Below, in pieces: positions 36,457 to 40,063 of a DNA stretch of 64,000 nucleotides. Source of the DNA: an uncultured Pelagibacteraceae bacterium (GTDB lineage: Bacteria > Pseudomonadota > Alphaproteobacteria > Pelagibacterales > Pelagibacteraceae); assembly GCA_902587435.1 (NCBI GenBank), contig CACILF010000003.1, positions 7,801-71,800 of the forward strand, in the 5' to 3' direction. A program made the position numbers and the translations under genes. Below the pieces are notes generated by a model. The model saw only the letters and a program-made list of their open reading frames with translations. It was not told where the DNA came from and searched no databases. Numbering within the stretch: the stretch's first letter is position 1; the number at the start of each line of letters is the position of its first letter.

Positions 36457-36753
36457 TTATAGATTAACTTTACTCAATTCATACATTTCAACAACTTCGA
36501 TACATTCATCAAAAATAGGTTTTGCAATTGGGTTATTACCTGAAGCAAACTTCTTCATTTCTTCTTCATTATGAACCGAGACTTTAAACATAACATAACT
36601 TTTATCTGGTCCTATTCCTGGAACTGTTTTTTCAACATGAGCAACAGTTTTTCTTACTGCCATTCCTTCATCTGATTGCATAAATCCCATGAATTTTTCA
36701 AATTTTCCCTCTCCAGATTTAATTCTTGCTATTGCAAGCATTTCCTTTTCCAT
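36457..36753 (-). CDS. Hypothetical protein, first gene of the small-gene operon
   Basis: 98-aa ORF with strong AAGGAG RBS. Confidence 0.75.
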   Translation of the reverse strand: MEKEMLAIARIKSGEGKFEKFMGFMQSDEGMAVRKTVAHVEKTVPGIGPDKSYVMFKVSVHNEEEMKKFASGNNPIAKPIFDECIEVVEMYELSKVNL

Positions 36754-36829: not shown

Positions 36830-36852
36830 ATCAGGTATGCATTAATTATATC
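36830..36852 (-). promoter_or_regulatory. Putative LysR-type operator
   Basis: Minus strand GATATA-ATTAA-TGCATA-CC-TGAT; 12/12 identity TGCATACCTGAT with 45168-45179. Confidence 0.5.
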
Positions 36853-37847
36853 CAGTTAGGAAATGGTAGGCCTTTTTCTTCTAAAAATTTTTTATTAAAC
36901 ATCTTTGAGTTGTATTTATCTGATTTATCGCAAAGAATAGTGACAATAGTTTTTCCTGGCCCGAGTTCTTTTCCTAGTCTTATTGCTCCTGCAATATTAA
37001 CTCCACAACTTGTACCAAGACTTAAACCTTCATTTTGAATTAAGTCATACAGAATAGGTAAAGACTCATGGTCACTTATTGAAAATGCCCCATCTATTTT
37101 AGCTTCAGCAAAATTAGCTGTTACTCTACTTGAACCAATACCTTCAGTGATTGATCCTCCTTCACTTTTTAACTCTCCATTCTTTATATAATTGTAGAGA
37201 GCCGAACCTGTTGGATCAGATAAATATATTTTTATATCTTTATTTTTTTCTTTTAAATAACTACTCACACCGCCAATTGTTCCACCAGTTCCAGATGAAC
37301 ATACAAACCCATCTACTTTTCCATCTGTTTGCTCCCAAATTTCTGGTCCAGTTGTTTCATAGTGTCCTTTAGCATTAGCAGTATTATCAAATTGATTAGC
37401 CCAAACTACACCATGATTATTTGTACTCTTTAATTCTTCAGCTACTCTTTTTGCAACTTTTACGTAGTTACCATCATCTTTGTAAGGTTTTGGCGGCACA
37501 AGTTTTAAATCAGCACCTATATTTCTTAACATATCTTTTTTCTCTTGGGTTTGGTTATCGTTCATTACAATTATAGTTTTATAACCAATTGAATTTCCAA
37601 TAAGACAAAGACCAATTCCAGTATTACCTGCAGTGCCTTCAACTATTATTCCACCTTTTGAAATTAATTTTTTTCCTTGTGCATCTTTTATTAGTGCTAA
37701 AGCCGCTCTATCTTTAACTGATCCTCCAGGGTTTAAATATTCTGCTTTACCATAAATATTACAACCCGTTATTTCTGATGCAGCTTTGAGTTTGATTAAT
37801 GGAGTGTTTCCTATTCCCTCAATGAAATTATTTTGAGAATTTTTCAT
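36846..37847 (-). CDS. cysK: Cysteine synthase
   Basis: [18 protein letters not shown] lysine, TAGNTG, GTGGT. Confidence 0.93.
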
Positions 37848-38413
37848 TTATTATCTCCATTAGCAATACCGTAAGGTTTAAATTCTTCAGTTGCTGTTCC
37901 AACATTTTTTGCAGGGATACCAACCATAACTGCATTTTCAGGAACATCTTTTGTTACAACTGCATTTGCGCCAATTTTTGCATTTTTACCAACTACGACA
38001 GGTCCTAAAACTTGAGCTCCAGAACCCACAACCACATTATCCATTAATGTTGGATGTCTTTTAGAACCTCTTTGATCATTTGAATTAATACTTGGTGAAA
38101 TTCCTCCCAAGGTAACCATATGATATATCGTTACATTGTCACCAATTTCAGATGTTTCACCAATAACAACACCCATACCATGATCTATAAAAAGATTTTT
38201 ACCTATTTTGGCTCTTGGGTGAATTTCTATTCCAGTTAAAAATCTTGAAAATTGTGAAATTATTCTTGCGATTAAATCTAACTTAGCAATTGAAAAAAAA
38301 TTAGCTATTCGATGAAAAAAAACAGCTTTAACACCCGGGTAAGTTAATATTACACTTAGCTTGGATTTAGCAGCTGGATCCCTGTTAATTATGGATTCTA
38401 AAAAACTATTCAT
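37844..38413 (-). CDS. cysE: Serine O-acetyltransferase
   Basis: RDPAA, TGIEIHP, FIDHGMG, KRHPT, hexapeptide repeats. Confidence 0.95.
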
Positions 38414-38448
38414 GATATTTAAATTATTTTGATTATTTAAATGATCAG

Positions 38449-38568
38449 TTAGTTGTCACAACAACAACTACCTGAATCAGGTTTGCATGAGCACTCTTTG
38501 ATTGCATCACAAGTGCATCTATCACTAATACAATTTGTACATTTACATTTTGGGTTATCGCATGCCAT
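38449..38568 (-). CDS. Uncalled 39-aa metallothionein-like protein
   Basis: [39 protein letters not shown]; 11 Cys of 39, three CxC plus CCC, no aromatic residues. Confidence 0.85.
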
Positions 38569-38623
38569 ACTATGAATATAATATGTGTTGATATTTAAAA
38601 TACAAGGTCAAATTTGTCACTAA

Positions 38624-39316
38624 TTACAATCTATCTAAAGTAAGTCCTTTAACATTTGCAGGTACAGCAATATCCATCATCTTGGGATTTGCTAAGTTTA
38701 GATTATTCATTATTTCTGCATACTGTTCTTTTGAACTTACTTGAAGTCTAGGATTATTATTTTTTTCATTTTCAATTGTTGAGTATTTTTTTCCATTATA
38801 ATCATGTGCTGGATACACCAAAGTGTCTTTTGGTAATTTTAGTAATTTATTAAATAAAGATTCATAAGCATCTTCTGCACTTCCATTTTGAAAGTCTGTT
38901 CTTCCAGTTCCATTTATTAAGAGAGTGTCACCTGTAAAAACTCTGTCATTCATTAAATAACTGTAAGAACAGTCTGTATGACCCGGAGTATAAATTGCTT
39001 TAAGTTCTATGTTTTCTACATTTATTTTTTCACTATCTTTTATTCTTAAATCAATTACTTCAGATTTAGATTTTTCTCCCATAATTCTAGTACAGTTAGT
39101 TCTTTTATTTAGTTCGTTTAATCCAGTGACATGATCTGCATGTATATGTGTGTCAATTACTTTAACTAATTTTAATTCTAAATTTTTTAATACCTCTATG
39201 TATTTATCTGTATGTTCAATTACAGGATCAATTATTAAGGCCTCTCTACCTTTTCCACTTGATATAATGTAAGTGTAGGTTGAAGATTTGGTGTCAAATA
39301 ATTGTTCAAATATCAT
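38624..39316 (-). CDS. ETHE1-like persulfide dioxygenase (MBL fold)
   Basis: SSTYTY, IDPV, THIHADH, TPGHT, GRTDFQ, YPAHDY, NPRL, AVPAN. Confidence 0.88.
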   Translation of the reverse strand: MIFEQLFDTKSSTYTYIISSGKGREALIIDPVIEHTDKYIEVLKNLELKLVKVIDTHIHADHVTGLNELNKRTNCTRIMGEKSKSEVIDLRIKDSEKINVENIELKAIYTPGHTDCSYSYLMNDRVFTGDTLLINGTGRTDFQNGSAEDAYESLFNKLLKLPKDTLVYPAHDYNGKKYSTIENEKNNNPRLQVSSKEQYAEIMNNLNLANPKMMDIAVPANVKGLTLDRL

Positions 39317-39400: not shown

Positions 39401-40063
39401 ATGACTTTAAAAATAAATAGTGTAGCTCCAGATTTCAAAGCTAAAACTCAAATGGGAGAAATTTCGTTTCATGAGTGGCTTGGAGATAGTTGGGGTGTTT
39501 TATTTTCACACCCAAAAGACTTTACTCCAGTTTGTACAACTGAACTTGGTGCATTAGCAAAAATGAAACCAGAGTTTGACAAAAGAAACGTAAAAGTTAT
39601 GGGTTTAAGTGTAGATCCAGTTGATGATCACGTGAAATGGATAGATGATATTACAGATGTTTGTGGAATGAAACCTGAGTATCCAATTGTTGCTGATGAA
39701 AAATTAGAAGTTGCAAAACTTTATAATATGCTTGAAGCAGATGCAGGTGTAAGCTCAGGTGGTAGAACTGCAGTAGACAATGAAACAGTTAGAACAGTTT
39801 ATGTAATAAGACCAGATAAGAGAATTGGTTTGTTTTTAACATATCCGATGACAACTGGTAGAAACTTTCATGAGATCTTGAGAGCTATAGATTCAATGCA
39901 AAGAACTATTAAACATAAAATTGCTACGCCAGCTGACTGGAAGCCTGGAGAAAAAGTAATTATTGTTCCTAAAGTTACAAATGAGGAAGCAAAAAAAATA
40001 TATCCAGATGGTTGGGAAACAATAAAACCTTATTTGCGTAAGGTTCCAGATCCACATAAATAA
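39401..40063 (+). CDS. 1-Cys peroxiredoxin (Prx6)
   Basis: FSHPKDFTPVCTTE, YP.TTGRNF.EILR, ATPADW. Confidence 0.94.
   Translation: MTLKINSVAPDFKAKTQMGEISFHEWLGDSWGVLFSHPKDFTPVCTTELGALAKMKPEFDKRNVKVMGLSVDPVDDHVKWIDDITDVCGMKPEYPIVADEKLEVAKLYNMLEADAGVSSGGRTAVDNETVRTVYVIRPDKRIGLFLTYPMTTGRNFHEILRAIDSMQRTIKHKIATPADWKPGEKVIIVPKVTNEEAKKIYPDGWETIKPYLRKVPDPHK

Follow-up and report, generated by a model that had tools for sequence, protein, structure and literature searches.

The 39-codon reading frame between an MBL-fold gene and cysE in this SAR11 genome belongs to a real, unannotated gene family, which among the genomes searched is found only in SAR11 and whose cysteine codons are under selection. 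With a probability of about 0.6, we read its products as a new family of metallothionein (MT)-like thiolate peptides, which are unrelated in sequence to the known MTs and would bind metal through their conserved cysteines. No heterotroph of the surface ocean is more abundant than SAR11, and we are aware of essentially nothing on how these bacteria cope with toxic Cu or with a scarcity of Zn and Cd; to our knowledge, the established bacterial MT families are likewise very few (SmtA/BmtA and MymT). If the MT reading is true, this would be a third such family, with no sequence relationship to either SmtA/BmtA or MymT.

A conserved cysteine-rich gene family in SAR11

The ORF occupies positions 38449–38568 on the reverse strand of the window (the whole stretch of 64,000 nucleotides that was analysed) and runs from ATG to TAA, with 39 codons ahead of the stop. 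It lies in a gap of 210 nt, bounded by the MBL-fold stop codon at 38624 and the cysE ATG at 38413, where the original prediction had placed an uncalled Cys-rich ORF; the coordinates and the 11 cysteines were confirmed, and the peptide agrees exactly with the 39 residues that had been quoted. The cysteines stand at positions 3, 8, 10, 13, 18, 20, 26, 28, 35, 36 and 37, in the pattern C-x4-CxC-x2-C-x4-CxC-x5-CxC-x6-CCC, and the window copy is devoid of histidine, aromatic residues and leucine. The earlier description of the peptide as free of histidine and aromatics is correct for this copy but not for the family at large, in which 20 of 136 distinct peptides have a histidine and 17 of 136 have one aromatic residue. 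Eleven in-frame TGY codons had been judged very unlikely by chance, and this is borne out by the probability of at least 11 cysteines in 38 codons, which is 5.6e-9 under the base composition of the window and 1.7e-13 under the cysteine frequency of its proteome (1.06%). Among the 1071 stop-to-stop frames of at least 25 codons each in the window, this one has the highest cysteine content.

Intact homologues were recovered from at least 195 pooled loci that specify 136 distinct peptides of 36–43 aa, which establishes the predicted uncalled ORF as a conserved gene. Every pooled locus comes from a Pelagibacterales genome or an AT-rich marine contig. When prokaryotic species were scanned with one genome for each, 95 relatives were returned, of which the 80 listed are single-cell genomes or MAGs of Pelagibacteraceae/Pelagibacterales, and a metagenome scan added a further 151. 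These two scans contributed 160 kept loci (80 of the 95 genome and 80 of the 151 metagenome relatives), and the ORF is intact in every one of them. Six-frame searching of relatives recovered an intact homologue from 8 of the 36 congeneric genomes and from none of the 24 in the sister family. With a profile, 401 genomes of the host's own taxonomic family yielded 20 strong matches in four genera; about 5% of the family's genomes carry the gene. None of the closed genomes sampled has the ORF, and a scan of viral contigs recovered no relative of it. At the protein level, 1.84 billion representative proteins were searched exhaustively with an HMM and no more than 19 clusters came back, all of them from this family; a protein homology search with a natural 43-aa homologue returned two proteins only. 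A set of weak profile matches (L029–L034) appear spurious, as a screen found them to be without Cys-rich ORFs and without the reference neighbours; L033, which we inspected, has no Cys-rich frame and neither MBL nor cysE as a neighbour.

Across the 136 distinct peptides, each of the 11 cysteine columns is 99–100% Cys, and Pro30, Asn5 and Asn12 are conserved at 96–99%, with the spacer columns admitting up to 15 residue types. Every cysteine column contains a mixture of TGT and TGC. The cysteine codons show a pN of 0.003–0.006 at saturated synonymous change and the spacer codons a pN/pS of ~0.7–1.05. Hence, the check on cysteine conservation in relatives that had been proposed along with the original prediction came out in its favour, with interchanging codons, constant residues and an intact frame throughout the kept loci. 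The spacers are themselves restricted in composition: the residues FYWLIMV make up 9% of them, as against a neutral expectation of 46% and a share of 37% in the window proteome, and in 25 sequences aromatics and histidine each account for 0.6% of the spacer positions. Hydrophilic small residues are thus tolerated and hydrophobic ones are not, which implies constraint on the spacers at the level of the protein. That the ORF could be a chance frame or a non-coding element, as its small size and missing annotation alone might suggest, is already refuted by these conservation data—the unbroken frame in all 160 relatives and the synonymous turnover at every cysteine codon, in addition to the composition statistics given above—and we accord this explanation a negligible probability.

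The cysteine complement varies in several subtypes. In a 36-aa subtype, the deletion of three codons together with new Cys restores a regular [CxCxx]4 pattern, and this subtype also has a histidine at position 7. Others gain Cys15 or a fourth C-terminal cysteine, and there are subtypes with 12–13 cysteines in all. A separate observation is a 52-aa variant on a 511-nt ENA contig (P0001), in which tandem duplication of the nine-residue block NDNCQCDGT adds two cysteines; this could reflect growth of the peptide via internal duplication or an assembly artefact.

Existing annotation resources hold no description of the family. No Pfam model matched the window peptide or any of the 25 members tested at E ≤ 10 (the bias filters of HMMER may hide very weak matches), and no NCBIfam model, of the set by which NCBI names proteins, matched the window peptide at the same threshold. 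The comparison with known MT families that had been suggested earlier gave the same result for prokaryotic and eukaryotic models alike at E ≤ 10: neither PF02069 (Metallothio_Pro, the BmtA/SmtA family), searched with the window peptide and the 25 members, nor the eukaryotic MT families of Pfam (e.g. PF00131, PF02067 and PF01439) matched. A sequence-profile search of the PDB yielded only non-significant LDL-receptor class A repeats (E ≥ 1.8), and Rfam gave nothing for positions 38250–38750 at E ≤ 1. The single-cell genomes' own peptides, one of them from a RefSeq record, have no exact counterpart in a collection of 15 billion proteins, where the few metagenomic members of the family are all without a name. 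In the literature, we found nothing that links metallothionein to SAR11 or Pelagibacter, and searches on bacterial MTs turned up no description of this family. The case illustrates that genes of no more than 40 codons, even under strong selection, are still being missed in the best-sampled marine genomes.

Likeness to metallothioneins

At 36–43 aa, the 136 homologues are of the low mass typical of MTs (under about 10 kDa); their cysteines are arranged in conserved CxC/CxxC/CC motifs and account for 11 of 39 residues (28%) in the window copy and 28–33% in the family, and aromatics and histidine, which are scarce in MTs, are altogether missing from the window copy. In size and in a cysteine content of ~28–33%, these peptides are close to the 11-Cys α-domain of vertebrate MTs and the 40–43-aa Drosophila Mtn proteins (PF00131, PF02067). 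They further share with the eukaryote-type MTs the CxC/CxxC/CC(C) motifs, the near absence of aromatic and hydrophobic residues, the variable spacers between invariant cysteines and the lack of predicted secondary structure. They are distinguished from them by being bacterial, by a cysteine order of their own and by the want of a Pfam match in any of the 25 members, and their metal binding is putative. Since there is no similarity to any MT model or solved structure, the case for their membership among the MTs is one of composition.

Among bacterial MTs, the SmtA type adopts a zinc-finger-like fold with histidine ligands and aromatic residues (Zn4Cys9His2). The BmtA/SmtA proteins (PF02069), which include the MTs of Pseudomonas and the BmtA of marine Synechococcus, are proposed Zn/Cd buffers, some of them in marine oligotrophs, and like the SAR11 peptides they are small, bacterial and Cys-rich. 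Unlike the SmtA type, the SAR11 family is mostly free of histidine, is predicted to be all coil and has no match to PF02069. MymT, the Cu(I)-binding MT of Mycobacterium, is also very small, Cys-rich, restricted to one lineage and unannotated by default, but it differs in cysteine pattern and phylum, and no NCBIfam model matches the SAR11 peptide at E ≤ 10; on these grounds, rather than by direct alignment, we set the two apart. The original prediction of a possibly new bacterial MT family therefore stands in regard to composition, cysteine pattern, distinctness from all known models and restriction to SAR11 among the genomes searched, with metal binding as the part that we infer.

An AF2 model built on 76 sequences is moderately confident (pLDDT 71) and has no regular secondary structure other than one short C-terminal turn, which is compatible with an apo-metallothionein but no proof of one, and neither Foldseek against the PDB nor a wide VIA-align search with this model gave a fold match. 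The nearest feature cluster in the ESM Atlas is that of the Diptera metallothioneins (PF02067; score 0.85, 182 shared features), which we treat as a lead only.

If the MT-like reading is correct, the gene would specify a small cytosolic thiolate-rich peptide, in which the 11–12 invariant cysteines, arrayed as CxC, CxxC and CCC between hydrophilic variable spacers, would wrap Cu(I), Zn(II) or Cd(II) within a single metal–thiolate cluster domain. By analogy with the 11-Cys α-domain of vertebrate MTs, this cluster would presumably hold ~3–4 divalent or 6–8 Cu(I) ions. The same peptide might also buffer oxidants by sacrificing its thiols. The gene would be an accessory stress gene, probably induced under stress. 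It would be transcribed either from a promoter of its own next to the ATG, in which case the mRNA is probably leaderless, or as an embedded member of thiol/heat-stress operons. In the commonest arrangement, it would be the first cistron before cysE and cysK, the makers of the very cysteine that it consumes. A peptide of 39 residues is one that biochemists can easily synthesise and test.

Gene neighbourhoods and alternative roles of the peptide

In the window, cysE (serine O-acetyltransferase; 37844–38413, reverse strand; TIGR01172, 217.7 bits against a cut-off of 210.65) begins 35 nt downstream of the ORF and overlaps by 4 nt with cysK (cysteine synthase A; 36846–37847, reverse strand; NF007989, 518 bits against a cut-off of 387). 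The MBL-fold gene (38624–39316, reverse strand; Pfam Lactamase_B) lies 55 nt upstream and encodes an ETHE1/persulfide-dioxygenase-like or glyoxalase-II-like protein. Its NCBIfam scores are below the cut-offs for GloB and Blh; of its earlier designation as a persulfide dioxygenase, the MBL fold stands and the specific enzyme falls short of curated standards. Divergent from it is the gene for a 1-Cys peroxiredoxin (39401–40063, forward strand; Pfam AhpC-TSA plus 1-cysPrx_C), and next after that comes a TehB-like methyltransferase. We also observed that most genomes of the genus have elsewhere a paralogue of the MBL gene with 60–68% identity, often in an open frame of ~340 aa that may be a fusion, and that a conserved 98-aa ORF without a Pfam family lies downstream of cysK (36457–36753, reverse strand).

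A divergent peroxiredoxin gene followed by MBL, the ORF, cysE and cysK in one direction is the commonest order, being seen at 77 of 80 genome loci and at 48 metagenome loci. Of the genome loci, 78 of 80 have cysE as the next gene after the ORF, at a distance of 25–39 nt, as do 64 of the 75 metagenome loci that could be evaluated. However, the ORF is not a fixed part of this array: of 30 loci with a close MBL orthologue, eight have the ORF and 18 pass directly from MBL to cysE (gap ~43 nt), and in the closed genomes cysE–cysK stand behind a different gene with no ORF. The gene is thus a presence/absence polymorphism, with sister genomes that share the gene order but lack it. A gene with ~5% carriage that is present or absent at a fixed locus could serve as a marker for marine trace-metal and redox ecology, to be correlated with gradients of metal, light or oxidants.

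This usual position raises the possibility that the ORF is solely a Cys-sensing leader whose peptide has no function of its own. Under such a mechanism, scarcity of Cys-tRNA would slow ribosomes at the 11 cysteine codons, especially at the terminal CCC, and the slowed ribosome would alter RNA folding or translational coupling such that cysE–cysK expression goes up. There is a precedent in mycobacteria, where leaderless polycysteine sORFs attenuate cysteine operons as a Cys "ribulon", for example Rv2334A before cysK1–cysE (Canestrari et al., bioRxiv 10.1101/834739). Attenuators of this class are marked by at least two Cys codons in a row within a short ORF at the transcript's 5' end, and by an RNA duplex over the next ribosome-binding site that opens when a ribosome stalls in the Cys tract. 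The SAR11 ORF shares with these its short length and missing annotation, a probable leaderless start, a C-terminal run of cysteines (here an invariant CCC) and, at most loci, a position directly before cysE/cysK. It differs in being longer, with 11 cysteines at fixed spacing across its whole length, and in having no detected duplex that masks a ribosome-binding site. Moreover, an attenuator of this class would always precede the co-directional cysteine-metabolism genes that it controls, whereas the SAR11 ORF does so at most loci only and is retained without any close co-directional gene as well as after groEL and msrB.

These exceptional loci bear directly on the leader mechanism. At 12 peptide-distinct loci, which represent about five arrangements, there is no co-directional gene within ~150 nt downstream. 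In 11 of these, all metagenomic, the next gene is a convergent ABC ATPase, ATP-grasp protein, glutaredoxin, zinc alcohol dehydrogenase, hisG or an unnamed ORF; at the twelfth (L200), cysE–cysK are missing and the next gene, co-directional and ~150 nt away, is the 98-aa ORF that in the window lies downstream of cysK. Five other genomes have msrB in place of cysE, 3 nt downstream of the ORF. One copy is found 7 nt past the groEL stop and is followed by convergent hisG (L239:799–2620, on an 82-kb metagenome contig; a single observation), and another is placed after msrB. These copies all keep the 11 cysteines and the CCC tail, with many differences in their spacers. The ORF is therefore independent of cysE, and its conservation in places with no downstream gene to control is at odds with a pure attenuator. 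A leader would also have no need of the eight further invariant cysteines that begin with codon 3 and keep a fixed spacing, nor of the invariant Pro30 and the bias against hydrophobic residues.

The recurrent neighbours across these arrangements are thiol/redox genes, namely those for the 1-Cys peroxiredoxin, the MBL/ETHE1-like protein, CysE/CysK, MsrB, glutaredoxin and a CDGSH protein, and we saw no metal transporter, metal sensor or metal-homeostasis gene near the ORF loci. The neighbours hence suggest a link to metals no more strongly than one to thiol, redox or heat stress, and for this reason a metal-independent thiol or sulfane-sulfur buffer is a real alternative, if one that we consider unlikely on balance. 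The peptide could then be a sacrificial antioxidant, a sink or reservoir of free cysteine, or a carrier/buffer of sulfane sulfur (persulfide) with the adjacent ETHE1-like enzyme and CysK as its partners, and any metal binding would be incidental. The copy in a groESL operon agrees with such a role. Cultured SAR11 require reduced sulfur, and given this need the storage or buffering of cysteine could pay. Against this, the regular CxC/CxxC/CCC spacing and the invariant Pro and Gly turns are what a metal–thiolate cluster needs, and simple thiol chemistry demands no such spacing of cysteines; further, the ETHE1 assignment of the neighbour is below curated cut-offs. A peptide with 11 free thiols also binds Zn and Cu in any cytosol.

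The neighbourhoods speak as well to the idea of a modified or secreted Cys-rich precursor, such as a RiPP, bacteriocin or disulfide-rich toxin. The size and cysteine richness of the ORF product are compatible with ranthipeptide/sactipeptide precursors and knotted peptides, but it has no signal peptide and no division into leader and core, its cysteines starting from residue 3. There is no gene for a radical-SAM enzyme, cyclase, protease or exporter in about ten contexts, and the fold search gave no knotted-peptide match. We accordingly see hardly any likelihood in this explanation.

Promoter, transcripts and RNA structure of the ORF

The region upstream of the ORF contains a –10-like hexamer, TATATT (38575–38580, reverse strand), so close to the ATG, its end being 6 nt away, that the mRNA is implied to have no leader or almost none. 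Comparison of 135 distinct upstream sequences shows TATAT at –12 to –8 to be conserved at 87–95%, and 101 of them have the same 6-nt distance between motif and ATG. A –35-like TTGTAT (38600–38605, reverse strand) is separated from it by 19 nt in the window and by 16 nt in most relatives, in which TTG at –34 to –32 is conserved at 79–96%; this element is proposed from comparison, as a scan with consensus promoters called no promoter for the ORF in the window. In several loci, the motif resembles the groES promoter of the same genome, as in ATTGAAA-N15-CTATATA (L012) and CTTGAAT-N15-CTTATAT (L040), and it could be either sigma-70-like or sigma-32-like in such AT-rich DNA. A putative separate promoter for cysE, GTGACA-16-AATAAT (38432–38459, reverse strand), overlaps the 3' end of the ORF and matches the consensus at 10 of 12 positions; it is the best match in the region, and such matches are no commoner there than in shuffled sequences.

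Genomes without the ORF have a CTATATA box 8 nt before the ATG of cysE (L054, L056, L062, L064 and L075), and closed genomes have one ~37 nt before it (L035–L039). The ORF thus occupies the spot between that promoter and cysE, and cysE in the ORF-less genomes may itself use a leaderless or very short-leader mRNA. Metatranscriptome contigs that cover the ORF come from four libraries of three studies, and one RNA-library contig extends across all three of MBL, ORF and cysE; such contigs record presence in the libraries and are no proof of transcription or translation, nor can their depth rank genes. Two RNA contigs from different studies (runs X17 and X18) have their ends right at the ATG, at 38570 and ~38567, which hints weakly at a leaderless start.

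At the other end of the ORF, an RNA hairpin (38442–38479, reverse strand) is predicted from codons 31–39, the stop and 7 nt beyond, with the CCC codons in its 5' arm near the loop. The centroid structure of the hairpin alone has an energy of –14.2 kcal/mol, and an 81-nt segment that includes it has an MFE of –15.1 kcal/mol, compared with –9.8 for shuffles (z = –2.0). Over 16 homologues, 84% of cells are paired in its 7-bp core, and one G-C/C-G pair covaries; this covariation is modest, and controls slid by –3 pair as well because of the UGU repeats. The default RNAalifold consensus for this 3' region differs from the hairpin of the single folds. A run of U5–6 follows the hairpin at some loci only. 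The hairpin is a candidate terminator, attenuator or stabiliser.

Several of these features are in keeping with a leader function: the conserved TTG-16-TATAT and the two contig ends suggest a leaderless 5' end; the invariant CCC is 0–2 codons (six in one variant) before the stop and falls within the hairpin; and the ORF is interposed between a promoter and cysE. Because it usually heads the cysE–cysK transcription unit, a point missing from the original prediction, a Cys-sensing leader is a serious rival. Still, the region from the ORF to cysE has no excess of RNA structure (mean z = –0.6), no pairing that masks the cysE start was found there, the CCC hairpin does not involve that start, and the gap of 25–39 nt is too small for a classical terminator plus antiterminator. 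Together with its conservation away from cysE, this leads us to exclude regulation as the sole function of the ORF and to rate a leader without a functional peptide as quite improbable.

A combination of the two is a tentative possibility for the common arrangement, to which we give a low probability: a SAR11 MT made from a leaderless mRNA, where the speed of translation through its 11–12 cysteine codons, as the first cistron, would in addition set the output of cysE–cysK as a Cys-dependent brake. The CCC tract lies within the 3' hairpin, and the peptide would be at once a sink and a sensor of cysteine. If true, this would provide a combined sink and sensor to an organism with almost no transcription factors.

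Three further sequence elements were observed in or around these regions. The groES promoter of the source genome (L157:1440–1500, contig C1) reads CCTTGAAA-N16-CTATATG (CTTGAAA-N16-CTATATG), with a leader of ~30 nt and a GGAG Shine–Dalgarno sequence, and we take it to be of the sigma-32 type known from alphaproteobacteria. Two copies, ~10 nt apart, of the self-complementary octamer ATTTAAAT fill the space from the ORF to cysE (38414–38448, reverse strand); the same pair is found in this gap in L002, L011, L022 and L040, with the second copy ending 3–4 nt before the cysE ATG. The pair could be an operator, or it could fold into an AU hairpin that covers the ribosome-binding region. Lastly, a GCGACAAA-like motif precedes the –35-like element of the ORF (~38611–38617, reverse strand; –49 to –43 in relatives), with its G/C/G/A positions conserved at 41–59% and the following A/A at 67–79%, and is a possible regulator site.
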